DNA of 64,000 bases from a virus (lineage: Duplodnaviria; Caudoviricetes). The notes beneath the pieces were generated by a model. The model was not told where the DNA came from and searched no databases. It saw only the letters and a program-made list of their open reading frames with translations. Every line of letters starts with the position of its first letter. Within the stretch, counting starts at the first letter, position 1. Location of the stretch: IMG/VR virus record IMGVR_UViG_3300033121_000264, positions 32,001 through 96,000 of that record, one strand, 5' to 3'. Of this stretch, positions 49,846-63,204 are shown piece after piece. Both the position numbers and the translations under genes were made by a program.

Positions 49846-49924
49846 GTAAGGTGTTGCTATCAATAGACTTATGTATGTGTGATACGCCGGCCCTCCCTAA
49901 GTCCTTACGCTGTAAGGGTTTACG
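49846..49924. repeat. 80-bp double-palindrome element, copy 1
   Basis: TAAGGTGTTG-ctatc-AATAGACTTA at 49847 and TAAGTCCTTA-cgctg-TAAGGGTTTA at 49898; central GC core degenerate; extra single palindrome at ~50011. Confidence 0.75.
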
Positions 49925-49926
49925 AC

Positions 49927-49941
49927 TGGCACGATAGTTGC
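49927..49941 (+). promoter_or_regulatory. Sigma54-type -24/-12 box
   Basis: TGGCACGATAGTTGC matches TGGCACG-N4-TTGC. Confidence 0.65.
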
Positions 49942-49953
49942 CTTGGCCTCATA

Positions 49954-49968
49954 GCAAATACAATGCCA
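49954..49968 (-). promoter_or_regulatory. Sigma54-type -24/-12 box
   Basis: TGGCATTGTATTTGC on the minus strand; a second minus copy, CGGTATGATATTTGC, at 50046-50060. Confidence 0.5.
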
Positions 49969-50210
49969 TACCAAACAGAATAATTCTACAAGAATAATAG
50001 TAGATAGTTGTAAGTCCTTACGCACAACCAGGTTATAGCTAAGTAGCAAATATCATACCGTAACACTCTCATAATAAAATGTTTATTTTCTTGGAAATAT
50101 TTCTTTTAGATATTTTGTTTTCTTTTGTGGAATTGTTCTGGACACGATAGGGATAGGTCGATAGAATACATAGAGACAAGAAAAGAACACTAAAGAGAAG
50201 GAAACGAACA

Positions 50211-50393
50211 ATGCCTAAGCTATTCTCCAAGAAGTCGATGCGTGAAGCGGTTGTCAAGATGCATCCCGTTATTGAGAACGGCCAGCACGTTTGGGTTGTG
50301 AGCAAGGGGTGGAAGTCCAAATATGCTTGGCCGGCCAATGGTATGTCAAGCCTAGAAATTGCCAAAAAAATGATGGAAAACTGGCAAGATTAA
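50211..50393 (+). CDS. Small early hypothetical protein
   Basis: AAGGA RBS; first gene of the plus-strand block. Confidence 0.6.
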   Translation: MPKLFSKKSMREAVVKMHPVIENGQHVWVVSKGWKSKYAWPANGMSSLEIAKKMMENWQD

Positions 50394-50465
50394 GGGTTGA
50401 CAAAACCGATACTAAGTGTAGAATTGAAGCATACAAAGAAACGATAACACGAAGGAGATTGAAAG

Positions 50466-50711
50466 ATGGCTAAGCATGTTAAGACGGTTTCGAGCTGGGA
50501 TTTGTTTTCCGCTACTGTGTTGGGTGTCGATGTGGCACCTAGCAAGGGTGTGCAATTGAGCTACGGCGGTAAGATTCGTCGTGGTACGGTTGAACGTATC
50601 GGACAACGTGAAGATGGTTCGATTGTGTTGAACGTGGAAACGCAAGACGGTTTCCGCAACTTCGATGCAGACTTGATTGAATCTTTCGAGATTCTGGAAT
50701 TAGTTCTCTAA
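50466..50711 (+). CDS. Small WYL/SH3-like protein
   Basis: LSY.G..R.G.VE...GFRNFDADLIESFEIL resembles the WYL R.F..DRI strand; GGAG RBS and own promoter. Confidence 0.5.
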   Translation: MAKHVKTVSSWDLFSATVLGVDVAPSKGVQLSYGGKIRRGTVERIGQREDGSIVLNVETQDGFRNFDADLIESFEILELVL

Positions 50712-50794
50712 GTCTAGTTGACAAAGAGAGAGGCATCGGCTACAATTGGGTAGTCGATAGGATAACAGGAAAAGAAAAAGCCAGAGGTATTAGA

Positions 50795-51013
50795 ATGAGC
50801 ATTGTAAACAGTACCGAATTGACGATTGCCGCAGTACGTGGTATGAGTGTTCGTCTGTTTGGTGAATCGTATGGTACGATTGATTACCATGATGGTTTGT
50901 GGTTTCTTACCATTGGCGGTATACTGTATCACTTCGACGGTGAGGTACTAGATGAGATTAACTATGCTATGGCATATGCTTATCGTGAGTTGATACGCGA
51001 GGGGAAGGTGTGA
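50795..51013 (+). CDS. Small hypothetical protein
   Basis: Own promoter and GAGG RBS. Confidence 0.6.
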   Translation: MSIVNSTELTIAAVRGMSVRLFGESYGTIDYHDGLWFLTIGGILYHFDGEVLDEINYAMAYAYRELIREGKV

Positions 51014-51062
51014 GCGTCACACCTAATGCAGACGCATAGGGCCGCCAGTAGAGGGGTACACA

Positions 51063-51278
51063 ATGGGAATGATGACTATAACGGAGATGCGAGACATGGT
51101 AAGTAGTCTAGAAGTTTCGATTATGCGAAATGAGCAACATCGTGAAGAAGCTCCCCATAACGACAAACGTGAATATTTCCAGTCGATTATTGACGCCCAA
51201 AAATCGGCCAAACGATACTATGAAAAACGTATCGAAGAAGTTGGATTTGATAATATTGAGGAATTTTCTCAAAAATAA
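51063..51278 (+). CDS. Small hypothetical protein
   Basis: GAGG RBS. Confidence 0.55.
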   Translation: MGMMTITEMRDMVSSLEVSIMRNEQHREEAPHNDKREYFQSIIDAQKSAKRYYEKRIEEVGFDNIEEFSQK

Positions 51279-51307
51279 CTCCGGCACAGTAAATGCCTCT
51301 TGACAAC

Positions 51308-51387
51308 CCTAAGTCCTTATAGGATAAGGGGTTAGGTCGCCGGGGCGCGTCCCCTCGCTCTAAGTCCTTACATATCAAGGGTTTACG
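51308..51387. repeat. 80-bp double-palindrome element, copy 2
   Basis: Palindromes at 51310 and 51361, core GGGGCGCGTCCCC; flanked by sigma54-like boxes at 51282 and 51391. Confidence 0.9.
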
Positions 51388-51557
51388 TTCCGGCATGAAA
51401 AATGCCTAGTCAAGAAAAAAGATTTTGCGTGCCTGGCATAAGAATTATTTTCTCGGCTTTTTTGAAAATATTTTCGATTTTGCTATTGTGTTTTGTTGGA
51501 ACGGACGATATAGTATGTAGAGTAATTGATTAAGTGATTGGTTTGAAAGGTTTGAAG

Positions 51558-51767
51558 ATGAAGATTGAAATTGGTGGTCGTGAAGTTTCCCGTAAGTCTT
51601 GCGAAGTTTGCAACGTGCTGTCGTTTGATTATCCGGATTTTTGTGATGCGTATATTGAATATGCCGAATTTGTCGATGGTGGTGAATTGAACGATGAGCA
51701 GCTAGAAATTCTGAATGAAGAAAATTCTATGCTAGTTCACGAATTAGCTCACGAATCGCAATTTTAA
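51558..51767 (+). CDS. Small acidic hypothetical protein
   Basis: DYPDFCDAYI..A...DG.EL..EQL..L; RBS present. Confidence 0.65.
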   Translation: MKIEIGGREVSRKSCEVCNVLSFDYPDFCDAYIEYAEFVDGGELNDEQLEILNEENSMLVHELAHESQF

Positions 51768-51837
51768 GTATTGACGCAAGGTTAAACAGCCGATAAAATC
51801 AGTAGAGTGATACAGTAAAGGTTTTAAGGGTAGAACG

Positions 51838-52032
51838 ATGAGCATTGAAAAGAAATTGATTGAAGCAACGAACGCTGGCGACTATGCTGGTTTCGGCAAA
51901 CATCGCCGGATTGTTAAGGAAACGGAAATTTCGGTGCCGGAAAAGTTTTGCGGTACTGAGATGGAATATGAGCGGTACGTTTCCGCTTACAAACGGTCGA
52001 ATCGTGACGCATACGAAGAATACGCGGAGTAA
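51838..52032 (+). CDS. Small hypothetical protein
   Basis: Own promoter and RBS. Confidence 0.6.
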   Translation: MSIEKKLIEATNAGDYAGFGKHRRIVKETEISVPEKFCGTEMEYERYVSAYKRSNRDAYEEYAE

Positions 52033-52218
52033 ATAAAATGGGTACTTTGCCGCCAGACGGTATGGTTATCGTAACTTTGTCAATCGTCGCCTTTGTTTTT
52101 ATGGTGATTATTATTTGGGATGATATTCGTAAAAATTAGAAATTAGGGTTGACAAATTCGGCCCGGTTGCTAAAATCAGTAGAGTAACGAAAAACGACTT
52201 TTCTTAAGGAATACAAAA

Positions 52219-52437
52219 ATGTCAGAAGCTGAACTAGTTGTCAAGGCTTTAGCTGCTCATTTGCGAGATTTAGCAGATATTTGTTTAAGAGAAGATAATG
52301 ACGGCCGTGGCGAATTATATTTAATCGCAGCGAAAGAATGCGAATCTGCTCTTGACGGCAAATATGGTTGGTCGTTAGAATTGTGGAAAGAATTAAAAGA
52401 ATTACGCGAAGCAAACGAAGATGCACGTTCTTTGTAG
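52219..52437 (+). CDS. Small hypothetical protein
   Basis: Own promoter and AAGGA RBS. Confidence 0.6.
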   Translation: MSEAELVVKALAAHLRDLADICLREDNDGRGELYLIAAKECESALDGKYGWSLELWKELKELREANEDARSL

Positions 52438-52512
52438 ATTCTGAAAATAGGTATTGACAAGCCTAGAAACAGTCGATACAATACATAGAACAAAGGAAAC
52501 AAAGGAAATAAG

Positions 52513-52689
52513 ATGAACGAACAAATTCAAAAAATGCTGGCCGAGCTACTTGATAGCAACGAACAAATTCTGAAATTGAGTGGGTCGAAAGTATCCCCCT
52601 CTGAAGAGGGGTTGGGAAACATTAACAACCATGCTTGCGATATTTATTTATTCGCAAAAAATCTGGAAAGACTATTGACGCAACAATAA
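52513..52689 (+). CDS. Small hypothetical protein (58 aa, below the ORF-track cutoff)
   Basis: Promoter at 52454, AAGGA RBS, open frame MNEQIQKMLAELL... Confidence 0.55.
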   Translation: MNEQIQKMLAELLDSNEQILKLSGSKVSPSEEGLGNINNHACDIYLFAKNLERLLTQQ

Positions 52690-52738
52690 GCGGCCGATAT
52701 AATTAGTAGAGTAACGAACAACGTAAAGGAATAGAAAA

Positions 52739-52954
52739 ATGCTGTACGACAACGAAGAACAATACAACGACGCCCGCGAATACTACGAAGGTAACGATTA
52801 CGACAATTGGGAAAACGAGCAAGTTTTCCAAGATAACGAGGGCGAGGAAGACTGGGGGGGCGAGGAAGATTCGTATGACCCCGGGGAATACGAGGCCAGC
52901 GACGAGGACGATGTTTACGGATGGGACGAGGACGATGGAAGGTGGGACGAATAG
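52739..52954 (+). CDS. Extremely acidic small protein (candidate DNA mimic)
   Basis: 31 of 71 residues are D/E, only 2 basic; own promoter and RBS. Confidence 0.65.
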   Translation: MLYDNEEQYNDAREYYEGNDYDNWENEQVFQDNEGEEDWGGEEDSYDPGEYEASDEDDVYGWDEDDGRWDE

Positions 52955-52963
52955 GTAAAATAC

Positions 52964-53097
52964 GAGGATGGGACGGTCTGGCACCGTGCTAGTTTAGGGG
53001 AAATGTGCAAGCTACACAAAGTACCCAAAACTTACTAGCTGGATACTAGTTAAGCTAGGAAAATAGGATAAAGTGGGTTCGACCCCCACCATTCTCA
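52964..53097 (+). ncRNA. tRNA-like RNA with expanded anticodon arm
   Basis: Acceptor GAGGATG/CATTCTC, D-arm ACGGT-CTGGC-ACCGT, T-arm GTGGG-TTCGACC-CCCAC; terminator hairpin at ~53114-53145. Confidence 0.65.
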
Positions 53098-53184
53098 GCA
53101 AATAAGTAGAATAGGTAGTCTGGGAAAACCTGGGTTGCCCATTTTATTTATATTAACAGTGAGAATGAGTCTCAATCTCGTCGT

Positions 53185-53264
53185 CCTAAGTCCTTTACTG
53201 GTAAGGGTTTACGTCTGGGGGCCGCGCACCGCCCACCTAAGTCTATATACAGTAAGGGTTTACA
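53185..53264. repeat. 80-bp double-palindrome element, copy 3
   Basis: Palindromes at 53187 and 53238; sigma54-like TGGTATGGTATTTGC at 53268. Confidence 0.88.
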
Positions 53265-53403
53265 GTTTGGTATGGTATTTGCCTATCGTTTTAAAAAATA
53301 ATTGTGTGCCGGGCATGAGAATTCTTTTCTGACCTATTTTGGAAAATTGTAGCGAGTGGCGTTGACAGGCGGCCGATAATTATGGTAGACTCAGTGAGTC
53401 AAG

Positions 53404-53622
53404 ATGATTCATTATATGAGGTTTATTATGGTTATTCGTACTGATTTTCAATTGTTGATTCACGACTTAGCCTGCTGCCAACTAATGAAGAAAAAAGATT
53501 TAGATAGGTGCTTAACAGAACGTGGTTCAAACTCTATCATCGTGCTTGGCACCGTTCGCACAATTAAGTGGAAAAGCGAGGGGGCTGGATACTACAAGGT
53601 TTTTACGGTTCCGTTTGAATAG
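53404..53622 (+). CDS. Small hypothetical protein
   Basis: Downstream of a promoter at ~53362; the true start may be internal (~53428, after GAGG). Confidence 0.5.
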   Translation: MIHYMRFIMVIRTDFQLLIHDLACCQLMKKKDLDRCLTERGSNSIIVLGTVRTIKWKSEGAGYYKVFTVPFE

Positions 53623-53780
53623 GTGAAACTATAACCATTGATTTTACGTTTGCACGGTATCGAATGCCGCACCGCAGAAACCGTGATTGCAGAAAATATT
53701 TTGCGAGACTAGTTGACAAGGTTTCGGCCAGTCGCTACAATTCACTAATCGAACGAAGAACACTTTAAGGAGATAGAAAA

Positions 53781-54200
53781 ATGACGAATTTGATTCAACC
53801 GGGAATTACGCTGAACAATGGGGAAGTGATTGGTTCGATGAGCGACCTAGATTGTTTCCGCCAGTTCAGTTTTGACGCATCGACCTATATTGATGCAATC
53901 AATGCTGACAACGGAATCCAGTTGAGCAAGCCGAAAAATGGGAACGGACACAATAAGCCGATTTACCGGATTGCGAAGATTGGGAAAACCCAACGGGCTG
54001 CGACGGTTAAGAAAGAACGGAAAGCTACGAAGGCTGAGAATCTTGCGAAGTATATGAAAGAGGCGGAAGCTGGATTACCTTTGAGTGTTTGCAGCGACGA
54101 CGAACTCTGCGACCGTATGGTCGCCGTGTTAAGCAAGCAAGGTAAGGACGGTTTGAAGTTTGGGGCGGTCGATGGCAAATGGGATGGCGATGAAAACTAA
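53781..54200 (+). CDS. Hypothetical protein
   Basis: Promoter at 53713 and AGGAG RBS. Confidence 0.7.
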   Translation: MTNLIQPGITLNNGEVIGSMSDLDCFRQFSFDASTYIDAINADNGIQLSKPKNGNGHNKPIYRIAKIGKTQRAATVKKERKATKAENLAKYMKEAEAGLPLSVCSDDELCDRMVAVLSKQGKDGLKFGAVDGKWDGDEN

Positions 54201-54209
54201 GGGGAATAG

Positions 54210-54377
54210 ATGATTAAGGTAATTTGGGTGGTGCTGCTGGAATGGGCCAGCAGCGTTGATTGCATGGGAGCCTTCTCTAATGAGACTGAGGCTCAAGAAC
54301 ACTTGAACACTTTGTATGATTCGCTAGATTACCCAAAGTCTGCATTTAGCCTACAATCCACACGCTATAAGGAATAG
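54210..54377 (+). CDS. Small hypothetical protein (55 aa)
   Basis: GGGGA RBS; stop abuts repeat copy 4. Confidence 0.5.
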   Translation: MIKVIWVVLLEWASSVDCMGAFSNETEAQEHLNTLYDSLDYPKSAFSLQSTRYKE

Positions 54378-54378
54378 A

Positions 54379-54459
54379 CCTAAAGCCTTATGGTGTAAGG
54401 ACTTAGGTGGCCGGGGCGCACCCCGTCGATGTAACCATATATACAGTAACACTTTACAT
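54379..54459. repeat. 80-bp double-palindrome element, copy 4
   Basis: Palindromes at 54381 and 54432, core GGGGCGCACCCC. Confidence 0.88.
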
Positions 54460-54540
54460 CTTTAAATTTTGCCTATTGACATATTGGATAAAATGACGAT
54501 AATATTGGTATAGCTCACAACATTGGAAGGATAGATAAGA

Positions 54541-54786
54541 ATGAAAATCTACGTGCTTTGCGATACTTACGTTGATTACGGGCAATATGACCGAGATACG
54601 GAAATTGAGCAATTTAAGGATGTTGCGTCAATTGAGAAGGTCGTGGTAATTTGGGCACAACAGGAAGTTAAGGCAAATAAGATAAGACCGGCAACTTGCA
54701 AAGTATACGACGATGTGGGGCTTTGCGTAGGTAGGGTAGATTTGAAGAAAACTGCGGCGGCTGGTAGGGTCGTGATGGCCCAATAA
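54541..54786 (+). CDS. Small hypothetical protein
   Basis: Promoter at ~54476 and RBS. Confidence 0.6.
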   Translation: MKIYVLCDTYVDYGQYDRDTEIEQFKDVASIEKVVVIWAQQEVKANKIRPATCKVYDDVGLCVGRVDLKKTAAAGRVVMAQ

Positions 54787-54906
54787 TTGTATCGGCTAAT
54801 ATATGCCGATTATGATAGAGCCCGCCATTGCAAGCGAAAAAGTGGCACTCGCAAGCTAATATTGTACTTGACAAAGCTATAACGATTAGTATAATAGAGA
54901 CATATC

Positions 54907-55006
54907 AGGGGACATGGTGACATAATAGTTGTGCTGGTGAGCGGTGGTAACACAGCGGAAGCCAGAGAACATAAGTATTATGGGTGGGTTCGATTCCTGC
55001 TCCCTA
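54907..55006 (+). ncRNA. tRNA-like RNA (T-arm, short acceptor, long GNRA-capped hairpin)
   Basis: Just after promoter 54868; GTGGG-TTCGATT-CCTGC T-arm; GGGGA/TCCCT; CATAATA...TATTATG stem enclosing CTGG/CCAG and GTG-GTAA-CAC. Confidence 0.55.
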
Positions 55007-55041
55007 GCCTTAGTTAGTTCAGAAAAAGCCGAAGGTGAAGT

Positions 55042-55242
55042 ATGTTGAAAGATAAAGCCCTAGCATTACAGTTTGCCCAAGAGTTGAAAGCCCTATTTGA
55101 TAAATATGAGGCAGAACGTATTACGCGAAATGAAAATGACTTGACAATTGTGGGGTCATTTGGTACAATTGATGATATTGACATTACGACTGGTACTATC
55201 TGGTCAGAACAACCTTGTGGTTGGGCATTAATTAAGGAATAA
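55042..55242 (+). CDS. Small hypothetical protein
   Basis: AAGGTG RBS. Confidence 0.55.
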   Translation: MLKDKALALQFAQELKALFDKYEAERITRNENDLTIVGSFGTIDDIDITTGTIWSEQPCGWALIKE

Positions 55243-55250
55243 CAATACAA

Positions 55251-55454
55251 ATGATAGAAAGAATGTGGATTAATCAACCATCAACCTTGCAACCTGACCA
55301 TTTTTGGCATGGTACAAATGTATTGGTTGATATGAGTTCTGTTAGATTTCATGAAAGAACCAAACAGAATCATGTTGACATTTACTTTTTAAGCGGTAAT
55401 ATTATTAGCTGTAGATGCTCAATGTTATCATTATCTAAAGGATGGAAGCAATGA
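55251..55454 (+). CDS. Small hypothetical protein
   Basis: AAGGA RBS; MWINQPSTLQP.H..HG.NVL motif. Confidence 0.65.
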   Translation: MIERMWINQPSTLQPDHFWHGTNVLVDMSSVRFHERTKQNHVDIYFLSGNIISCRCSMLSLSKGWKQ

Positions 55455-55605
55455 AAACCTTTCGGCTTTTTCTTCTCCTAATCACAGTTAAAATCAATAT
55501 TGATGCGAATACGTATCAAATAAAAGATTGGCAACCTTTCGAGATTGTTAATCCTGCCCCAATTATCCCATTGTTACAACCTCTTAAGAAAAATTGGTGG
55601 ATTCC

Positions 55606-55770
55606 ATGACCGAAATGTTATCTGATTGGGCATTCTATTATGGTATGCTAGTTTTCATTTTAGTCGATGAATGGTGTAAAGTACATCAAAGACCATGGTA
55701 TGTAAAATTTATATTACTTACAACAATTTTAACATTTGGCATTTTTATGTTGAAGTTGTATAAGTCCTGA
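55606..55770 (+). CDS. Small membrane protein (54 aa)
   Basis: Two hydrophobic segments; stop lies inside repeat copy 5. Confidence 0.45.
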   Translation: MTEMLSDWAFYYGMLVFILVDEWCKVHQRPWYVKFILLTTILTFGIFMLKLYKS

Positions 55771-55837
55771 CTCCATAAGGAGTTAGGTGTTGGGGGCGTG
55801 CCCCGCGAACGTAAGTGCTTATGTAGTAACGACTTAA
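55760..55837. repeat. 80-bp double-palindrome element, copy 5
   Basis: Palindromes at 55761 and 55812, core GGGGCGTGCCCC. Confidence 0.88.
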
Positions 55838-56011
55838 AACTACTAAAGAATTATCCCCAGGTTACCGATACTATCTATATCAAAGGAGTATTGGTATGAA
55901 AATTATTTTGACAATTCTTGCGATTGGCGTATTGACAATGACGGGCTGCGTTGCTACAATCAAGAGCGTAACAGTTGCTTATAACGATGTGGAAGTAAGG
56001 ACGGAATTCCG

Positions 56012-56200
56012 ATGAAAATTACTATTGATATTCAGCACCGTTACACGGATAATGATAACGAGGAAAATGAATACATTGTCAAAATCTCTGATGATACCAA
56101 ATTAGAGACCAGTGAATACAAGTGTGACGATATTCAAAAAGTAAAGAATTTTATTAGTTTAACAGTTCGTGAAACTTTGTTTGACTTAGGAATGTATTAA
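56012..56200 (+). CDS. Small hypothetical protein
   Basis: AAGGA RBS. Confidence 0.55.
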   Translation: MKITIDIQHRYTDNDNEENEYIVKISDDTKLETSEYKCDDIQKVKNFISLTVRETLFDLGMY

Positions 56201-56349
56201 TGAAAATCACTGGCCGCGAATTGGCACAGATGGGTCGTAATGGTCACACCACCCATTTTAGTGGTACTGGCTTGCATCGCAATTGGAAGAAACAACCAAA
56301 AGGTGGAAAGAAAGCCCAGGCTCGTAAAGCTATTCGAGAATTTGCTTGA
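56200..56349 (+). CDS. Small basic protein (49 aa)
   Basis: Coupled by TAATG; MKITGRELAQMGRNGHTTHFSGTGLHRNWKKQPKGGKKAQARKAIREFA. Confidence 0.5.
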   Translation: MKITGRELAQMGRNGHTTHFSGTGLHRNWKKQPKGGKKAQARKAIREFA

Positions 56350-56404
56350 CAAGTCTGAAAAGTCTGATACACTAAGCTAGTCACCAACAATAAGGATTAG
56401 TAAA

Positions 56405-56659
56405 ATGACTGACCTATCCCATCCTGAGTTTAGACTGACTAGGAACCGGCCATACGTTCTTTGTAACTGTCCTGGACGTAAGGACGTTCGTGCCCGTCAA
56501 GGTTATTACATTCGTGCTAAAGATTCTCAAGCTGCACTTGAGCGAATGGCTGAACACTTTCCGGATGATATGCAATTCGGATTTACTTGCGATTTGTGGA
56601 AGTTGCCCGAAGGTATGAGTTTTGAACACTATAACGAAATGTTGGAGATTATGTCGTGA
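56405..56659 (+). CDS. Small hypothetical protein
   Basis: Promoter at ~56346 and AAGGA RBS. Confidence 0.6.
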   Translation: MTDLSHPEFRLTRNRPYVLCNCPGRKDVRARQGYYIRAKDSQAALERMAEHFPDDMQFGFTCDLWKLPEGMSFEHYNEMLEIMS

Positions 56660-56886
56660 AGATTACAGAAGCAATCAACCAACTTACAGAATGTTTAAAA
56701 ACTGGCGAAACCGACATTATCTTTGCATATTGGGAAAGAAATATGTTTGATATAGACGGTAAACTAATTGACAAAGAAACCTTTGCAGGTTATGCTGAAG
56801 ATATTGAAGACAATATGGATTGGTCGTATGCTTGGGAAGATATGATGGAAATTATTGCTAGAAATGTAGCAGAAGATTCAGAATAA
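56656..56886 (+). CDS. Small acidic hypothetical protein
   Basis: Coupled by GTGA; stop abuts repeat copy 6. Confidence 0.6.
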   Translation: MKITEAINQLTECLKTGETDIIFAYWERNMFDIDGKLIDKETFAGYAEDIEDNMDWSYAWEDMMEIIARNVAEDSE

Positions 56887-56966
56887 CGTAAAGCCTTTAC
56901 TCGTAAGAGTTTAGGCGTTGGGGGCGTGGCCCGCCGCCATAAGTCCTTATATACCAAGGGATTACG
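56887..56966. repeat. 80-bp double-palindrome element, copy 6
   Basis: Palindromes at 56889 and 56940. Confidence 0.88.
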
Positions 56967-57091
56967 CTCACTAGAATTATTCGTAGAATTATTTTTCCAG
57001 GCCGCTTGACAATGCCGATAAAGACTGTATAATGATGGAGTAAGGCAAACGAATCACTTCGATTCGGAACCAATTATCTAAGGAGTCTGAT

Positions 57092-57283
57092 ATGTCGCAA
57101 GTTCAAACCATTCGTGCCCTTCGTATGGCGTCTGCTCTCGTTAAGAAGAACCGTTTCGATACGGCTCGGATTCAGCGTGCTATCAAGTCTAAGGTGGGTG
57201 TGACGGTCGATGGTCGTACGATTGCCGGCATCCGAATGTCGCATCGTTATCAGGTGGGGAAAGCGTTGAGTTTGGTTATGTAA
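57092..57283 (+). CDS. Small basic protein
   Basis: Promoter at 57006 and AAGGAG RBS. Confidence 0.65.
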   Translation: MSQVQTIRALRMASALVKKNRFDTARIQRAIKSKVGVTVDGRTIAGIRMSHRYQVGKALSLVM

Positions 57284-57404
57284 ATAAAAGATTGGGGACT
57301 GGGGGAAATAGCAAAGGTGGGTACAATATGATAGAGACTCACGCCTCCAGTTTTCAATTTTCTAATTTCGTTTTTAGTCAAGCAAACCATTTTTTTGGGA
57401 GACA

Positions 57405-57584
57405 ATGACAATGCAACAATATATTGAGTACCGGTTGAGTGAAAAGGGAAGCGAACACCAAGGCCAATGGATTGAGTTTGGCCGAGTCGAGGCTAAGAGT
57501 CGTCGGCAGGCAATGAAGCAACTAAGTAAGGATGACCCGAAAGAGGGGCCACAAGTTCAGCGGAAAGTTCGTCAGGCCGAATAG
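57405..57584 (+). CDS. Small hypothetical protein (59 aa)
   Basis: GGGAG RBS; open frame MTMQQYIEYRLSEKG... Confidence 0.5.
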   Translation: MTMQQYIEYRLSEKGSEHQGQWIEFGRVEAKSRRQAMKQLSKDDPKEGPQVQRKVRQAE

Positions 57585-57647
57585 GGCTTGACAGATTGAA
57601 AATCCGTTGTAAAATTGTGGTATACTAATCGCTTCTCTTGGTGTAAC

Positions 57648-58040
57648 ATGACGATTGAAAAGCAAGCAACGTTTGATTTTGTTGTTGGAAAAATTCGCGA
57701 ACAGGGTTGTGCTTCTGTTAAACCCGATTCAAATAGCTGTTTGTATCGTGGACCGAATGGTACTAAATGTGCGGCTGGTCATGTCATTCCAGATGAAAAA
57801 TATGACCCTTGTTTTGAGGGTTGTACTGTCCCCGTATCTCTTGCAGACTGGGACTCTGGTAATACTAAAAAACTTTATGAAGTTTTGAAAGAAACTGGAC
57901 ACGATTTAAATTTGTTGCGTTCTTTGCAACGTGCTCACGACAGCATATCTATGGAATATAATTTCCTAGCAGGTTTTGAGAAAAATGTCCAGCATGTAGC
58001 AGAATTTCATGAGTTAGTTTACACTCCGCCGAAGGAGTAG
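57648..58040 (+). CDS. Hypothetical protein, paralog A
   Basis: CLYRGPNGTKCAAGHVIPD...LQRAHD; close paralog of 58722-59108. Confidence 0.75.
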   Translation: MTIEKQATFDFVVGKIREQGCASVKPDSNSCLYRGPNGTKCAAGHVIPDEKYDPCFEGCTVPVSLADWDSGNTKKLYEVLKETGHDLNLLRSLQRAHDSISMEYNFLAGFEKNVQHVAEFHELVYTPPKE

Positions 58041-58041
58041 T

Positions 58042-58121
58042 CCTAAGTCCTTTAGCCGCAAGGCTTTAGGCATAGGGGGCGTGCCCCATAGCTCTAACTC
58101 CTTATGCTACAACGACTTAGA
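58042..58121. repeat. 80-bp double-palindrome element, copy 7
   Basis: Palindromes at 58044 and 58095, core GGGGCGTGCCCC. Confidence 0.88.
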
Positions 58122-58162
58122 AATATACTTGACAGATGAGAATTCTATTGTATAATAATTGA

Positions 58163-58312
58163 ACTTAGGGAGATGCCGCTATGGTGGCGGATACGCCTAT
58201 AAGGTAGGATAGAACGGTCCTACTACCTAGGAGCCAAATACTTGTATCTGCTAAAATAGGCAGATTGCCCCGAGCCACATGATGCCTGCGAAATCAGTCG
58301 CAAGCGAATATT
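58163..58312 (+). ncRNA. Candidate structured ncRNA (four hairpins)
   Basis: Between two consensus promoters with no long ORF; hairpins CCGCTA/TGGCGG, GTAGGA/TCCTAC, ATCTGC/GCAGAT and TGCGA/TCGCA. Confidence 0.45.
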
Positions 58313-58351
58313 TAGGGTTGACAAACGAAAAGCCGAGAGTATAATAGTCGT

Positions 58352-58558
58352 ATGAGCAAACAATTCTTCCATGTTAGTGAGCGGGTTAAAAGTTTAATGA
58401 TGGGCCATATTGAGGGCACTGTTGTTATAACCCATAATAGGGGTGAGTTGGGTTGGGAATACTTTATCTGTTGGGATAATGGGATGAGTGGGTCATTTAC
58501 AGAAGAACAAATTGTAGCAAACGGAATTAAGAAATGTCATCGCTTAAATCAATCCTAA
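58352..58558 (+). CDS. Small SH3-like hypothetical protein (possibly leaderless)
   Basis: F.V.ERVK......GTVV...Y.I.WD.G pattern; ATG ~6 nt after the -10 box. Confidence 0.55.
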   Translation: MSKQFFHVSERVKSLMMGHIEGTVVITHNRGELGWEYFICWDNGMSGSFTEEQIVANGIKKCHRLNQS

Positions 58559-58725
58559 ACCAGAAATCCTACGGCATTTTTATTCAAGGGGTTGACGAAA
58601 ACGGAATTCCTTGTATGATTAGGGTCGCAGGTGAGTGGACGAACAAACGAGTGGCTCAACGTGAAACTCGCCGCTTAATGAATTTGGATAGTCGAAAACT
58701 TAAAGGGGAATTGGTACAATTATGA
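58534..58725 (+). CDS. Small hypothetical protein
   Basis: Coupled ORF. Confidence 0.5.
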   Translation: MSSLKSILNQKSYGIFIQGVDENGIPCMIRVAGEWTNKRVAQRETRRLMNLDSRKLKGELVQL

Positions 58726-59108
58726 TTACTATGCAAGAAACGTTTGATTTCGTTGTCGGTAAGATTCGTGAGCAGGGTTGTGCTTCTATTGTGGAAGGTG
58801 GTAGTAGTTGCCTTTATCGTGGGTCGAATGGTACGAAGTGTGCCGCTGGTCACGTTATCCCAGATGACAAGTATGACCTTATTTTTGAGGGTTGTACCGT
58901 TGTCACGAAACCTTGGGATGGAATGCGTGAAGGTGTTAAAAAGTTGTACGAAGTGTTAAAAGAAACTGGCCACGATTTAGATTTGCTTCGTAACTTACAA
59001 CGATGTCACGACGATGCATCTTCATTTAAAAACTTTATGGAGAAGTTTGAAATTAACGTGAAAGAGATTGCTACCTTAAAAGAATTAACCTACACCCCGA
59101 AAGCATAA
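58722..59108 (+). CDS. Hypothetical protein, paralog B
   Basis: CLYRGSNGTKCAAGHVIPD...LQRCHD. Confidence 0.75.
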   Translation: MITMQETFDFVVGKIREQGCASIVEGGSSCLYRGSNGTKCAAGHVIPDDKYDLIFEGCTVVTKPWDGMREGVKKLYEVLKETGHDLDLLRNLQRCHDDASSFKNFMEKFEINVKEIATLKELTYTPKA

Positions 59109-59121
59109 AACAACCCAACGT

Positions 59122-59201
59122 CATAAGTCCTTACTATGTAGGGATTTATGGCTAAGGGGCACGCCCGCCATACCTAAGTCGTTATGCCACAAGGGTTTAC
59201 G
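59122..59201. repeat. 80-bp double-palindrome element, copy 8
   Basis: Palindromes at 59124 and 59175; sigma54-like CGGCACGATATTTGC at 59204. Confidence 0.88.
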
Positions 59202-59360
59202 TCCGGCACGATATTTGCCCAGAAAATCTTTTCAGAATTATGATGCCAGGCACACCATTTTATTTTATTCTAGGCTCTGTATTAGTGGGGATTAACGATT
59301 GACGCCAGGCCGATTCTATGGTACAATCCAGACTTCGCAGCCAGTTAAAACCGGAGTCAA

Positions 59361-60122
59361 GTGATGGAAATTTTAAAGTTTGGAAAAGCAAACGGAAAAT
59401 TGAAGCAATTGCAAGCAAAATTGGGCCGGAAAGTAGCAATTTTTGATATGCTCGCCGGCCATACTTGCCCATTCGCTAAAGATTGCCTATCTAAAGCAAT
59501 TAACCTAGATGGGAAGCGAACAATTGAAGATGGGAAAGATACAAAGTTTCGGTGCTATGCGGCGAGTTTGGAAGTTATCTATCCGGCCGTATATTTCGCA
59601 CACGAACACAATACTAAGCTGATTCGCACAGCTCTATTGGGGGGTGTGAATAATGTAGTCGATTTGATTACACAATCAATCCCAAAGTGGGCCGAAGTTA
59701 TCCGGATTCACTCATCGGGCGATTTTTTCCATCTTAGCTATTTTGACGCTTGGCGGAAAGTTGCGGAATCTTATCCAGACCGCCTATTCTACGCATATAC
59801 TAAGGCTACCCCGTTCTGGGTGAAACGCCTAGATGCTATCCCCCCGAATATGCTACTTACCGCTAGTTTTGGGGGTAAGCGTGATGATTTGATTTTGTCG
59901 CATAATCTCCGGTCAAGTTTGGTAGTTAAGACCGTAGCAGAAGCGAAAAAATTGAAATTGCCTATTGACAAAGCTGATATTTGTGCAGCTACGCCTGGCC
60001 CTAACTTTGCTTTGCTGATTCATGGAGTTCAGCCGAAGGGAAGCGAATACGGAAAAGCGGTACGGAAACTAAAGGGGAAGGGAAGTTATGGTCGAAAGTC
60101 TACTCGAAAGGTGGCTGTTTAA
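59361..60122 (+). CDS. GP88-like (radical-SAM-like Fe-S) protein
   Basis: TCPFA.DC...CYA, RIHSSGDFF and FYAYTK motifs as in the mycobacteriophage gp88 family. Confidence 0.7.
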   Translation: MMEILKFGKANGKLKQLQAKLGRKVAIFDMLAGHTCPFAKDCLSKAINLDGKRTIEDGKDTKFRCYAASLEVIYPAVYFAHEHNTKLIRTALLGGVNNVVDLITQSIPKWAEVIRIHSSGDFFHLSYFDAWRKVAESYPDRLFYAYTKATPFWVKRLDAIPPNMLLTASFGGKRDDLILSHNLRSSLVVKTVAEAKKLKLPIDKADICAATPGPNFALLIHGVQPKGSEYGKAVRKLKGKGSYGRKSTRKVAV

Positions 60123-60387
60123 TGAAACCGCAAATATGGGCCATTCTATTGGGGGGTTTGATGATTCTCGGATGGTACATGGAAGCAAGTAAAAATTCTG
60201 GCCGCTAGTTGACAAGTCGTGAAAAGATGGTAAAATTTGGGAGTCGTGAGGGGATGACTGAAACGAGAAAAGCCAACAACGAAAAAAACGCGAGTCGCTT
60301 GACAAGCTATAAAATGTTGGTATAATCAAAGAGTCGCCCACAGTTAAACGGTTTTGTAGTTTTTATTTTTTGAAAGGTTGGTGTACG

Positions 60388-60831
60388 ATGGCTGAGCAAG
60401 TGACGAACGGTGTTGAAACGGAAACGACGATTGTTGTCCCGGGTATGAAGGTGGGCAAGTCGGCCCCGAAGATGCGAAAGGATGGTACGCCTCGTAAGGA
60501 GCGTACCGTGGTCGAGGACGAAAAGTTTCTGGCTGCGTATTTCGCGGCGGTTAAGGCCGGTCATCCGGTTAGCAAGTTGGCGGAAACTTTGGGAATGGCG
60601 GTCGGTTCGGTGATTCAACGCATCGAATCGACTAACACGAACCTCTTGGAGGTTGGTGCGAAGCCGCTGCCGAAGTTGGCACGTAAGACCGGTCCCCGAA
60701 AAGACCGTTCCGCCCTGGCTGCCCTAGTTGCCCAGATTGGCAAGGGTACGCTGGAAAGCCTGCCGGTTGAAGCCCCTATTTCGGGGGAAGCTCCGGAAAT
60801 GTCGGACGAGGAAGCTAACAGCGACGCCTAA
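60388..60831 (+). CDS. Putative DNA-binding protein (HTH-like)
   Basis: VSKLAETLGM..GSV.QR; two promoters upstream; GC-richer codons; terminator downstream. Confidence 0.6.
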   Translation: MAEQVTNGVETETTIVVPGMKVGKSAPKMRKDGTPRKERTVVEDEKFLAAYFAAVKAGHPVSKLAETLGMAVGSVIQRIESTNTNLLEVGAKPLPKLARKTGPRKDRSALAALVAQIGKGTLESLPVEAPISGEAPEMSDEEANSDA

Positions 60832-60861
60832 GCACTAGGCCGAGTTGAGTAGAAACTAAGC

Positions 60862-60903
60862 AAGCCACCTATCAGGGGTAACTCTGGTGGGTGGTTTGTT
60901 TTA
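60862..60903 (+). terminator. Rho-independent terminator
   Basis: AAGCCACCTATCAGGG...CTCTGGTGGGTGGTTT followed by GTTTT. Confidence 0.7.
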
Positions 60904-60922
60904 TTGTATAAAATGCAATCGT

Positions 60923-61002
60923 CGTAAGTCCTTACCTGGTAAGGGTTTAGGGCTGGGGGGCGTGCCCCGCCGCTGTAAGTCTATATGCTGTAATGGTTTG
61001 CA
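60923..61002. repeat. 80-bp double-palindrome element, copy 9
   Basis: Palindromes at 60925 and 60976, core GGGGCGTGCCCC. Confidence 0.88.
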
Positions 61003-61087
61003 TTGTTTTATTTTTGTCTATTGACACTTCGATAATTCGGTGTAAAATCACTACATCAAAGCAACTAACTTCACAAAGGAAAATGTC

Positions 61088-61345
61088 ATGCGTATCTGGG
61101 TTCGTAAAGCCGATTGTGTCAAGGCTCGTCAGGCTATGGAAGCCGGTTTGTCTATTAAGGATGGTGCTTGCCCCGTTATCCAAGCGTTGCGTTCGCTTGA
61201 TATTCCGGCCCAAGATTGCGGATATGAGACAATCTACGTCGATGGGAAAGCGTACAATATGAATGGGCACAATACCATTCGCCGTTGGTTGCATACGAAT
61301 TGCGACAACGGATTTTATATCAAGATTAAGGACTTGACATACTAG
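61088..61345 (+). CDS. Small hypothetical protein
   Basis: Promoter at 61021 and AAGGA RBS. Confidence 0.6.
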   Translation: MRIWVRKADCVKARQAMEAGLSIKDGACPVIQALRSLDIPAQDCGYETIYVDGKAYNMNGHNTIRRWLHTNCDNGFYIKIKDLTY

Positions 61346-61400
61346 AAACTTGTGCTACAATTCAATAGTCAACGGTCAACAGTAAACAAGGAATCAAAAA

Positions 61401-61646
61401 ATGAAAACGAACGATTTGAAAAAGGGTACACGAATCAAGTTGGCTAATGGTTGGGAAGCTATTATTGAGGATAATATGAAAGGCAACACTCGCCTTGCCA
61501 AAGTGTTCGGATTCTTTACCGAAATTGGTTCGGTCTACAGTCACGATATTAAGTATTTCCGAAATGATGCTGGTATTTGGGAAAGTGTGGAACATACGCC
61601 AGCCCAAATTAAGATGCGAAAACAAGTCTCAAGTTTTGGAATGTAA
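61401..61646 (+). CDS. Small SH3-like hypothetical protein
   Basis: DLKKGTRIKL.NGW.A...DN..G.TR...V.G...EIGSVYSHDI; own promoter and RBS. Confidence 0.7.
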   Translation: MKTNDLKKGTRIKLANGWEAIIEDNMKGNTRLAKVFGFFTEIGSVYSHDIKYFRNDAGIWESVEHTPAQIKMRKQVSSFGM

Positions 61647-61806
61647 CTAAAGGACGAATAAAATGAAAAATTGTGCCTTGACTTTCTCGTTCTTTGTGGT
61701 ACAATGGGCGTAGTTGCAGCAGTAATAATCTGTGGGCTACGCTAGTGACAAATAAACAGTGGGAAGCTATAATACTTATCCTACTGTTGATTGGGTGGTA
61801 TCGTGA

Positions 61807-61879
61807 GGAACTGTAGTATAATGGTTATTACAGCGGACTTTTAATCCGCAAAATCTGGATTCGACTTCCAGCGGTTCCA
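61807..61879 (+). tRNA. tRNA-Lys (UUU)
   Basis: GGAACTG/CGGTTCC acceptor, GCGGA-CTTTTAA-TCCGC anticodon arm, CTGGA-TTCGACT-TCCAG T-arm. Confidence 0.9.
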
Positions 61880-61903
61880 CTTAATGAATACAATCTAAGA
61901 TAC

Positions 61904-61974
61904 GCCCCATTATGTTAATGGTAGACACGCCGGTTTTCAGCCGGAAAATAACAGTTCGATTCTGTTATGGGGTA
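61904..61974 (+). tRNA. tRNA-Glu (UUC)
   Basis: GCCCCAT/ATGGGGT, CCGG-TTTTCAG-CCGG, AACAG-TTCGATT-CTGTT. Confidence 0.85.
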
Positions 61975-61980
61975 CTTTAT

Positions 61981-62057
61981 GCTGGCATGGCTCGACTGAG
62001 AAAGGCACCGCACTTGTAATGCGGATTATGTGGGCGCGAATCCTACTGTCAGCCCCA
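61981..62057 (+). tRNA. tRNA-Thr (UGU), non-canonical T-loop
   Basis: GCTGGCA/TGTCAGC, CCGCA-CTTGTAA-TGCGG, GTGGG-CGCGAAT-CCTAC, encoded CCA. Confidence 0.85.
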
Positions 62058-62071
62058 TACTAGAGGATAAT

Positions 62072-62236
62072 ATGAAAAGTGAAATTGTTAAAATTGAATT
62101 AACCAAAGAACAATATGAACAGTTAATTAGCGAATTGTATTCATTATATGGTTATCACTGGAATAGCGATAAAGTTCATGCTGATGATTGTGGAAGTAAG
62201 GTGATTGATATCATCCAATCACAAGTCCAATCATAG
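62072..62236 (+). CDS. Small hypothetical protein
   Basis: GAGGA RBS before ATG 62072; stop inside repeat copy 10. Confidence 0.55.
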   Translation: MKSEIVKIELTKEQYEQLISELYSLYGYHWNSDKVHADDCGSKVIDIIQSQVQS

Positions 62237-62299
62237 TAAGGACTTAAGTGTAAGGGGCACGCCCCCCAGACGTAACTCCTTATGCCACACCAGGTTACA
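62220..62299. repeat. 80-bp double-palindrome element, copy 10
   Basis: Palindromes at 62222 and 62273, core GGGGCACGCCCC. Confidence 0.82.
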
Positions 62300-63109: not shown

Positions 63110-63183
63110 TACGGTGGGGAGCCGCTGGTGGCTCGGAATAGCTGTTAACTATTTTGCCATTGGTTCGATTCCAATTGCCGTAG
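63110..63183 (+). tRNA. tRNA-Asn (GUU) with 6-bp D-stem
   Basis: TACGGTG/TGCCGTA, GAGCCG-CTGG-TGGCTC, AATAG-CTGTTAA-CTATT, ATTGG-TTCGATT-CCAAT; own promoter. Confidence 0.8.
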
Positions 63184-63204
63184 CTAGTTTAGATAGGACA
63201 ACGT

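Follow-up and report, generated by a model that had tools for sequence, protein, structure and literature searches.

An uncultured ∼160-kb phage carries among its early genes a recurrent ∼80-bp element in which a GC-rich core is flanked by two matching symmetric sites of 25 bp each. What does this element do? A sequence-only reading of the window (the whole 64,000-nt stretch analysed) had proposed two answers, phased protein-binding sites or recombination sites bounding gene cassettes.

Ten elements of fixed geometry

An nhmmer profile was built from the ten window copies and applied to the whole 104,685-bp contig. Exactly ten full-length matches were obtained, all at window positions 49846–62299 and at the coordinates first read from the sequence, and the earlier observation that the first 49 kb of the window lack the element also held under the profile scan. 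All ten are on the same strand (52–72 bits on the + strand versus 32–51 bits on the − strand, + being higher for each copy) and align to the model without indels, so that the claimed 51-bp start-to-start distance between dyads is exact in 10/10. Shuffles give an expectation of 0.84 occurrences of the skeleton TAA-N4-TT-N7-AA-N4-TTA for the window; 12 are present, all within the element zone. Half copies with a single dyad are present at 50010–50035 and just past the window end. The GC-rich core between the dyads (GGGGC..GCCCC type) was found, as described, in most copies, TATATA substitutes for the inner TT in three, and ORFs do end at or inside elements at 54377, 55770, 56886, 58040 and 62236.

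49847–49922, +: element 1, the most diverged copy (left dyad drifted, right dyad canonical), in the divergent gap between leftward late genes and rightward early genes
50010–50035, +: solitary single dyad (half element), faced by a minus-strand sigma54-type site
51310–51385, +: element 2, strict skeleton in both dyads; box 4 is TATCAAGGGTTTA, a perfect IHF 13-mer match
53187–53262, +: element 3, with TATATA in place of the inner TT in box 3
54381–54456, +: element 4, beginning 4 nt past the stop codon at 54377
55761–55836, +: element 5, box 1 containing the stop codon of ORF 55594–55770
56889–56964, +: element 6, followed by a perfect 12/12 sigma70 promoter
58044–58119, +: element 7, followed by a perfect 12/12 sigma70 promoter
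59124–59199, +: element 8, followed at 4 nt by a sigma54-type motif
60925–61000, +: element 9, with a terminator-like hairpin (60858–60901) directly upstream
62222–62297, +: element 10, with a diverged box 1

Conservation, pairing and gene turnover in relatives

The element family comprises at least 184 full copies at 63 IMG/VR loci, ∼10 per genome, confined to a single GC-richer early zone. Among 153 distinct copies the skeleton is essentially invariant in both dyads, with AA/TT present in 153/153, and variation within the dyads falls in the 5-nt centre and the inner N4. Only A/T pairs occupy the strictly invariant positions; 9 bp separate the inner TT step from the inner AA step, a TTA lies 6 bp outside each, and two positions beyond each dyad a C and a G are conserved. 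GC content is 76% in the spacer, compared with 42% in the flanks, and the spacer sequence is not conserved. Dyad spacing is uniform within the genome at 21 of 31 loci and differs between genomes, 53 bp being commonest, then 52, then 51. Lengths that never change are thus a property of this genome but not of the family, and spacing variation in homologs, named beforehand as evidence against binding, is found in part, between genomes and hardly within them. A change from 51 to 53 bp twists one dyad relative to the other by ∼70 degrees, a shift that a rigid, phased complex would be expected to tolerate poorly. What is conserved is a set of fixed bases (YAA-N4-TT / AA-N4-TTR) in two dyads ∼5 turns apart.

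A fold of the whole unit into one long hairpin, as had been proposed, is predicted for many copies. By pair counting, pairing was 80.5% in a three-hairpin model versus 81.4% in shuffles (489 of 500 shuffles equalled or exceeded the observed value), and 83.6% versus 85.8% in the long-hairpin model (500 of 500). Since the variable positions pair no better than shuffled controls, base identity and not a hairpin is conserved. The two dyads stand, but not as true palindromes: they are imperfect, and their symmetry comes from the invariant A/T positions rather than from base pairing.

These results bear on whether the element acts as RNA, be it a terminator, an RNase III or other processing site, a stabiliser of early mRNA, or a small structured RNA started by a docked sigma54 promoter. 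Most window copies do fold better as the + strand than as the − strand, since mismatches become G.U pairs there, and ten of ten window copies share coding-strand polarity. The predicted sigma54 start in relatives is ∼2 nt ahead of the element, and the distal dyad is G.U-compatible on the sigma54-transcribed strand in 31 of 38 units, a polarity that might point to an RNA role or simply to common descent. However, covariation is absent for either fold, G.G and C.C oppositions are frequently tolerated, loops vary freely while stems carry the invariant bases, and there is neither a U-tract behind the GC core nor an Rfam match. In relatives the element has the polarity of the coding strand in 42 cases and the opposite one in 49, a mixture to be expected of a symmetric DNA site but not of an mRNA element. 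An RNA function, with no covariation and a polarity that flips among relatives, was thus considered very improbable.

When the phage is compared with relatives whose TerL is 52–54% identical, the elements are nearly the only early-zone DNA still alignable. The genes between them have been almost completely replaced, the elements persisting. The only widely shared early gene is gp88-like (PF17338).

Such turnover would suit elements that serve primarily as recombination substrates bounding shuffleable cassettes, either by homologous exchange like that of promoter-early stem-loop (PeSL) cassettes or, less likely, by attC-like site-specific recombination of a folded strand. The predicted breakpoint signal exists but is limited to a ∼2-fold enrichment of homology breakpoints within 20 nt of elements in related loci (11.6% versus 5.1%). 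A gene-plus-element unit is duplicated in the window (57662–57941 and 58733–59012, each followed by an element), and cassette differences adjoin element copies at three loci (L009, L016 and L029). Against this, elements figure in only 2 of 8 clean indels, 0 of 7 cases showed a presence/absence polymorphism the size of an element, and a search of the contig and of four complete motif-bearing viral records, three of which are TerL relatives, found no tyrosine or serine recombinase. Recombination alone also fails to explain the invariant A/T skeleton, the fixed spacing and the 10.5-bp promoter ladder described below. We give this explanation little weight; recombination between copies is probably a by-product.

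The integron comparison in the sequence-only reading was not supported. As in attC arrays, a gene is followed by an imperfect inverted repeat, repeated along the array, but attC sites keep structure and not sequence, whereas the element keeps base identity and a folded site lacks covariation support. With pairing no better than in shuffled controls, no integrase found in the contig or the four complete records, cassettes that have their own promoters and few clean indels at elements, the attC-like form was judged unlikely.

Promoters around the elements

Outward sigma70 promoters have their −35 box 9, 19–20, 29–32, 40–42 or 50–53 nt from the element edge, a ladder with a period of ∼10.5 bp (Rayleigh R 0.75, n = 53; the copies are related to one another, so the phasing statistics are not fully independent). 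The ladder is maintained across 35–41 diverged linker clusters rich in phased A-tracts. In the window its short form is occupied by only four of the ten elements, and with ∼25 strong early promoters versus 10 elements, only some early promoters come after an element; the gene cassettes between elements carry promoters of their own. The phased sigma70 early promoters are:

54476–54503, +: phased to element 4, −35 at 19 nt from the edge
57006–57033, +: phased to element 6, 12/12, starting 41 nt past the edge
58129–58156, +: phased to element 7, 12/12, starting 9 nt past the edge
61021–61048, +: phased to element 9, −35 at 20 nt from the edge

Sigma54-type −24/−12 motifs are ∼20-fold enriched in related loci and dock at a fixed distance there, the −12 C lying 15–16 nt from the first dyad. 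Five of the six sigma54 PWM matches in the contig touch elements. Tandem, divergent and convergent sets of such promoters surround the elements, and a site is present at ∼30% of copies in relatives and at 4–5 of 10 here:

49923–49944, +: TGGCACGATAGTTGC, a −24/−12 motif 4 nt past element 1, directed away
49951–49972, −: motif directed toward element 1
50043–50064, −: motif facing the half element at 50010–50035, an arrangement as in relatives
51282–51296, +: CGGCACAGTAAATGC, degenerate, firing into element 2 from 13 nt upstream
53264–53285, +: TGGTATGGTATTTGC, docked after element 3
59200–59221, +: CGGCACGATATTTGC, docked after element 8

The layout of CGGCACAGTAAATGC, firing into element 2, is typical of relatives.

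The enrichment, the fixed docking distance and the promoter sets could mean that the docked promoters are activated by a bacterial enhancer-binding protein for which the element serves as the enhancer (upstream activating sequence); in many relatives these promoters would yield transcripts antisense to early operons. Enhancers usually have two dyads, as each element does, and a promoter that may fire into its own enhancer has a precedent in FlrC, whose sites, paired dyads beside −24/−12 promoters, lie downstream of the transcription start (PMC6504787). Neither a PF00158 activator nor a sigma54 gene was detected, however, in the contig or the same four complete records, most copies have no sigma54 site, the 4–16 nt gap leaves no room for looping, and the sigma70 ladder would go unexplained. 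We regard an enhancer function as improbable.

A putative docking module and its binder

The element is probably a double-stranded DNA protein site with an architectural or regulatory role. The binding model proposed earlier stands in this general form, given the fixed bases, the absence of compensatory change, dyads ∼5 turns apart and helical phasing to downstream promoters. The best explanation overall, offered tentatively, is a docking module for a bending protein upstream of early transcription units. Each 25-bp dyad would be one symmetric binding site, and the stiff GC-rich spacer would hold the two sites ∼five helical turns apart as one architectural unit. Kinks would fall at the inner TT and AA, 9 bp apart, with flank contacts another 6 bp out at the outer TAA/TTA. 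With both dyads bent, the upstream DNA, which carries phased A-tracts, would be folded onto RNA polymerase at the next strong early sigma70 promoter, itself in helical register with the element, and the same fold would position sigma54-type sites docked on the element. The effect might be activation, shut-off or insulation.

The likeliest binder of such a module would be an IHF/HU-type protein, although a specific binder of that type is still somewhat doubtful. It would probably be host-derived, because the phages encode no IHF/HU (no such gene was found in the contig or the four complete records). In IHF/HU complexes the distortions are ∼9 bp apart and TTR lies 6 bp from the nearest kink (PMC5829579), and the AA/TT and TTR geometry of the element fits a site of this type. 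The match to the Escherichia coli IHF consensus does not extend beyond this: the perfect agreement of TATCAAGGGTTTA in copy 2 with WATCAANNNNTTR is as had been claimed, but element boxes typically show 3–4 mismatches at the 9 specified positions of the 13-mer, the WATC part is absent and the element zone is not enriched for good IHF matches. The elements resemble IHF/HU-family bend sites in their YAA-N4-TTR core, in A/T-only invariant positions and in being extragenic, repeated, near sigma54 promoters and upstream of strong promoters; they differ in two-fold symmetry, in the fixed spacing of two sites and in the missing WATC half. Bend sites of this family include the paired REP-plus-IHF mosaic elements (RIP/BIME) of enterobacteria.

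The same conservation without covariation, two-dyad design and −35 ladder would also support operators for a sequence-specific regulator (helix-turn-helix or similar), phage-encoded or a host factor, that dispenses with IHF/HU-type bending. Such a regulator would switch early promoters off (or on) like phi29 p4, or form a roadblock or insulator between early operons. The C and G conserved outside the dyads point to some base-specific contacts, a spacing particular to each genome would be in keeping with co-evolution with a phage protein, and near-consensus promoters need shut-off more than activation. On the other side, no DNA-binding protein is conserved in the element zone, and the model of the gp88-like protein shows an enzyme fold resembling an alpha/beta barrel, without any DNA-binding match. 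Strictly invariant positions that are all A/T are unusual for major-groove readout, and the sites lie far upstream of the promoters and not over them. We consider operators of this kind unlikely, though worth keeping in mind.

The putative docking module has partial counterparts. Architectural control upstream of strong promoters is exerted by phased Fis sites (rrnB P1), by IHF (Mu Pe, lambda PL) and by the phi29 p4/p6 switch, in which inverted repeats separated by 15 bp control the early/late transition. The element shares with these the dimer sites (putative here) centred ∼80–150 bp upstream, on one helical face, in A-tract-rich DNA at strong promoters, whereas the motifs differ and no corresponding regulator gene was identified in the phage. 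To our knowledge, none of these systems consists of ∼ten dispersed copies built to one fixed 80-bp plan.

Cluster A mycobacteriophage stoperators are 13–14 bp, asymmetric, oriented with transcription and bound by the prophage repressor. The sites described here are symmetric, their polarity is independent of transcription and no integrase gene was found in the phage contig, but both families place one protein site (putative here) in many copies within short intergenic gaps of a single genome.

Like the PeSL cassettes of T4-type phages, the elements are short conserved non-coding units repeated through a hyperplastic region of small early genes, most of them orphans, with strong sigma70-type early promoters and gene turnover between copies. 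PeSLs combine a promoter with a terminator stem-loop, and their recombination and mini-circles have been shown (Arbiol et al. 2010, PMC2839356). In contrast, the element has no terminator, recombination evidence at it is weak, and what is conserved in it, upstream of the promoter, is two dyads resembling protein sites.

The element family and its skeleton

The phage is siphovirus-like, with a tape measure protein of 2,486 aa and a large terminase (TerL) at most ~25% identical to its counterparts in cultured phages; the source contig in IMG/VR, of which the window is bases 32001–96000, is 104,685 bp long, with a completeness rating of 68%. From ~49.8 kb of the window, coding switches to the + strand, genes become small and the GC content rises from 31–38% to 40–46% on entering the early zone. 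The part holding the elements (window 50000–62000) stands 5–10 GC points above the rest of the genome, and the corresponding zone of G004, a complete genome related to this phage, is raised likewise (152–161 kb plus 0–8 kb).

A profile scan of the whole contig, which the sequence-only reading had called for, returned ten full elements and no more, all in the zone (49847–62297) and at exactly the positions first assigned to them. The ten copies align to the profile without indels and all score higher on the + strand. This uniform polarity is a trait of this genome, since across the family 42 elements lie in the same orientation as the coding strand and 49 in the opposite one, mixed even within loci. 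The window has 12 occurrences of the invariant skeleton, TAA-N4-TT-N7-AA-N4-TTA per dyad, where 0.84 would be expected, and two half elements accompany the array:

50010-50035, solitary dyad (half element)
just past the window's end, second solitary dyad

The exact dyad TAAGTCCTTA-N5-TAAGGGTTTA was found in 63 stretches of IMG/VR contigs, and a profile search of these gave 184 full elements, 1–2 kb apart. Three complete genomes of 161–167 kb have a TerL 52–54% identical to that of the phage; in one of them, G004, about ten elements are restricted, as in this phage, to one zone (~17 kb in G004) of higher GC content close to the terminase gene. DNA searches with the zone and with a single element found nothing similar among 50,697 GenBank phage records. 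Among 185,579 species genomes the exact dyad pattern occurs in no more than ten contigs, all of MAGs and spread over many phyla; these are probably mis-binned phage DNA, so the pattern provides no host clue. None came either from a search for look-alikes of the phage sugar dehydratase, which returned mainly viral clusters. The impression that the element had not been described before was borne out in Rfam, in GenBank phages and in the literature on sigma54 in phages and on intergenic repeats, where the nearest items are the promoter-early stem-loop cassettes (PeSLs) of T4-type phages and, in halovirus HF2, intergenic repeats that bear promoters.

In a set of 153 distinct copies, both dyads keep T-A-A, T-T, A-A and T-T-A essentially unchanged, with AA and TT present in all 153. 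The strictly invariant positions are exclusively A/T pairs, the four bases within each 10-nt box and the five central bases vary, and the 10-5-10 layout of the boxes is constant throughout. The dyad spacing had been described as an invariant 51 bp; this holds for all ten copies here, but the family also uses start-to-start spacings of 53 bp (116 copies) and 52 bp (37), with 51 bp in six copies, and the value is usually uniform inside one genome (21 of 31 loci). The spacer between the dyads is 76% GC, against 42% in the flanks, contains indels and has no conserved hairpin. The 51-bp spacing places the four TAA triplets of an element (offsets 0, 15, 51 and 66) in a common reading frame and, as had been noted, several upstream ORFs end at or within an element; thus, the elements may also act to stop translation.

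No part of a phage genome is less understood, or changes faster, than the early region. The early-zone DNA that still aligns to relatives is nearly confined to the elements, the exceptions being one promoter and one gene, and at the protein level a gp88-like gene is the only early-zone gene widely common to relatives. Across a family-level clade of uncultured ~160-kb phages (TerL ~53% identical), a non-coding design of 80 bp has survived longer than nearly all the genes around it. Such persistence implies that a function in cis is under strong selection.

Possible folding and exchange at the elements

The explanation of the elements best supported by their sequence is a docking module on double-stranded DNA, in which two symmetric putative sites would lie on one helical face. 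An RNA element is possible at lower odds. Single copies fold well in silico, in keeping with the long hairpin that the sequence-only reading had proposed, but when 85 elements were aligned without gaps, pairing was no higher than in shuffles. Paired cells amounted to 80.5% under a three-hairpin model (81.4% in shuffles) and 83.6% under the long-hairpin model (85.8% in shuffles), and for both models covariation scores in the 85 elements were below nearly all shuffles. At variable positions, opposed bases pair no more than column composition predicts, with frequent G.G and C.C oppositions. It is therefore the conserved bases that make the dyads symmetric, and such bases without covariation argue against an attC-like folded site, a terminator or a processing hairpin. 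No U-run follows the GC core, and an Rfam scan matched tRNAs only, with no match to the elements at E values up to 1; on sequence features, an intrinsic terminator was rejected. In the terminator scan only two elements had a hairpin upstream and no element had one inside, and with neither U-tract nor covariation the elements do not resemble the terminator stem-loop of PeSLs. The two upstream hairpins suggest that at least some early units end before an element:

53114-53139, terminator-like hairpin with T-run, just upstream of element 3
60858-60901, terminator-like hairpin with T-run, just upstream of element 9

A recombination site is likewise a possible reading of lower probability. Relatives have almost entirely different genes between their elements and homology breakpoints between related loci are ~2-fold enriched at elements, as the idea of shuffled genes would have it, but only two of eight clean indels touch an element. 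The specific proposal of integron attC cassettes did not survive. Whereas attC sites keep structure, with paired R/L boxes that vary in a compensatory manner, the elements keep sequence instead; and whereas integron cassettes are promoterless and served by one common promoter, the array contains >20 near-consensus sigma70 promoters of its own. Neither tyrosine (PF00589) nor serine (PF00239) recombinases were found in the contig (68% complete) or in four complete motif-bearing viral records, three of them TerL relatives. A MITE-like mobile element was also rejected, none of seven indels of 50–160 nt between related loci, a small sample, containing an element. Recombination between copies, yielding indels, replacements and mini-circles, has been shown for PeSLs (PMC2839356), and by analogy exchange at the elements is plausible, as a by-product of repeated homologous DNA. 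Recombination would moreover leave the conserved skeleton, spacing and phasing unexplained. Two paralogous genes (phrog_17693) at 57615–58040 and 58722–59108, each followed by an element, share ~73% DNA identity over 280 nt, as if a unit of gene plus element had been duplicated in tandem; a third fragment lies at 50846–50879.

Likeness to bending-protein sites and the candidate binder

Within each dyad, 9 bp separate the inner TT (positions 11–12) from the inner AA (20–21), and the outer TTA/TAA follow 6 bp further out on both sides. IHF and HU complexes show distortions ~9 bp from each other, with the TTR element 6 bp from the nearest kink (PMC5829579). As sequence geometry only, the dyads match an IHF/HU-type bend site, from which each differs in being, in layout, a two-fold symmetric version. 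The sequence-only reading had related the boxes to the IHF consensus. Their AA/TT and TTR geometry does fit, but the E. coli consensus 13-mer WATCAANNNNTTR is poorly matched, usually with 3–4 mismatches because the WATC part is missing. Among 80 box readings, three had at most one mismatch to WATCAANNNNTTR and 69 had 3–5, and good IHF matches per kb are fewer in the zone than in the remaining window. Membership of the E. coli IHF consensus was rejected on these two grounds; the likeness of the putative sites to IHF sites is one of geometry and not of consensus.

The binder of the docking module would likely be an IHF/HU-type bending protein, which the dyad geometry favours; a sequence-specific regulator in its place is nearly as likely. 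Either might boost, time, shut off or insulate early transcription. No HU/IHF gene was found in the contig (68% complete) or in the four complete motif-bearing viral records, of which three are TerL relatives. The one early-zone gene shared widely with relatives encodes the following protein:

59361-60122, gp88-like protein (PF17338, phrog_1392), ~45-50% identity to relatives

This protein contains conserved motifs of Cys, His and Asp and has no sequence match in the PDB. Its AlphaFold model (pLDDT 82) weakly resembles alpha/beta barrel enzymes and has no DNA-binding fold; on this predicted structure, the gp88-like protein was rejected as the element binder.

If the binder were a host architectural protein, the elements would be a clear natural case of repeated, phased nucleoprotein units built by a phage, units that would drive or time early transcription, and the unexplained sigma54-type sites in these phages would be tied to a defined partner element.

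Promoter phasing, sigma54-type sites and the early zone

The proposed docking module would lie upstream of early transcription units and be coupled to sigma54-type sites. In a PeSL the unit itself includes a strong early promoter of sigma70 type. Here an outward sigma70 promoter follows the element, 9–53 nt beyond it, in four of the ten copies here and in ~50 related copies; many copies have no adjacent promoter. The distance from the element edge to the −35 box takes the values 9, 19–20, 29–32, 40–42 or 50–53 nt. The linker sequence itself is not conserved. Grouping the linkers at 70–80% identity gave 35–41 clusters, whereas single-linkage at 60% merged them all because they are AT-rich. The ~10.5-bp ladder persists across the 35–41 clusters of diverged linkers, which are rich in phased A-tracts, and points to a face-of-helix constraint between the putative dyad occupant and RNA polymerase.

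In the related loci, sigma54-type motifs (TGGCAC-N5-TTGC) show ~20-fold enrichment (144 against ~7). The first dyad starts 16 nt after the −12 C in 29 of 38 units, with the predicted promoter firing into the element, and at some elements the docked sites form tandem, divergent or convergent sets. The 104-kb contig has six sigma54 PWM matches, five of which touch elements or a half element. In the window, the motifs by elements are:

49923-50064, sigma54-type -24/-12 motifs (PWM)
53264-53285, sigma54-type -24/-12 motif (PWM)
59200-59221, sigma54-type -24/-12 motif (PWM)

Four elements share a longer module, with a sigma54-type motif 4–5 nt after the element and facing away from it. A docked sigma54-type site was counted on 42 element sides in relatives; most copies have none. 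The docked sites of many relatives are oriented antisense to early genes. At one related locus (L013:130-5914) the repeat is a longer unit of ~220–290 nt, present in seven copies in 6 kb at 83–90% identity; besides the element it contains a docked antisense sigma54 site and another conserved block.

A sigma54 enhancer is a possible identity for the element, at lower odds than the docking module. Such enhancers have an adjacent -24/-12 promoter and a cognate AAA+ enhancer-binding protein; no such protein (PF00158) was found among the phage genes surveyed, those of the contig and of the same four complete viral records, though a host activator might serve. Nor was a sigma54 gene found in the contig (68% complete) or in these four motif-bearing records, three of which are TerL relatives. 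A more speculative extension of the docking module, which we consider unlikely, is that the elements are hubs at which a lytic phage assembles host factors that it does not encode, an IHF/HU-type bender and sigma54-RNA polymerase, the latter docked at a constant 15–16 nt. Since the sigma54 sites of many relatives point back into the preceding early operon, such hubs could time early-gene shut-off, through either antisense transcription or parked closed complexes. If true, this would be an undescribed phage use of sigma54. The grammar of the element is in any case precise and testable, comprising the A/T skeleton, the per-genome dyad spacing, the 10.5-bp promoter ladder and the fixed-distance sigma54 docking.

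Near-consensus sigma70 promoters are abundant in the zone (89 found, 40 expected). Beyond the −35 and −10 hexamers, many of the early promoters share a conserved spacer block (TTGAC-...-CCGATAA-...), seen also in promoters of related contigs; it may be an additional recognition element or reflect the descent of promoter modules from a common ancestor. The early zone also contains a tRNA cluster (61807–62054 and 63110–63184).

51484-51523, promoter with shared spacer block
51769-51808, promoter with shared spacer block
52452-52491, promoter with shared spacer block
52673-52712, promoter with shared spacer block
57014-57043, promoter with shared spacer block
within 61807-62054, tRNA Lys and tRNA Glu (ARAGORN)
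61981-62054, third tRNA-like match (Rfam only)
63110-63184, tRNA Asn, a separate gene (ARAGORN)
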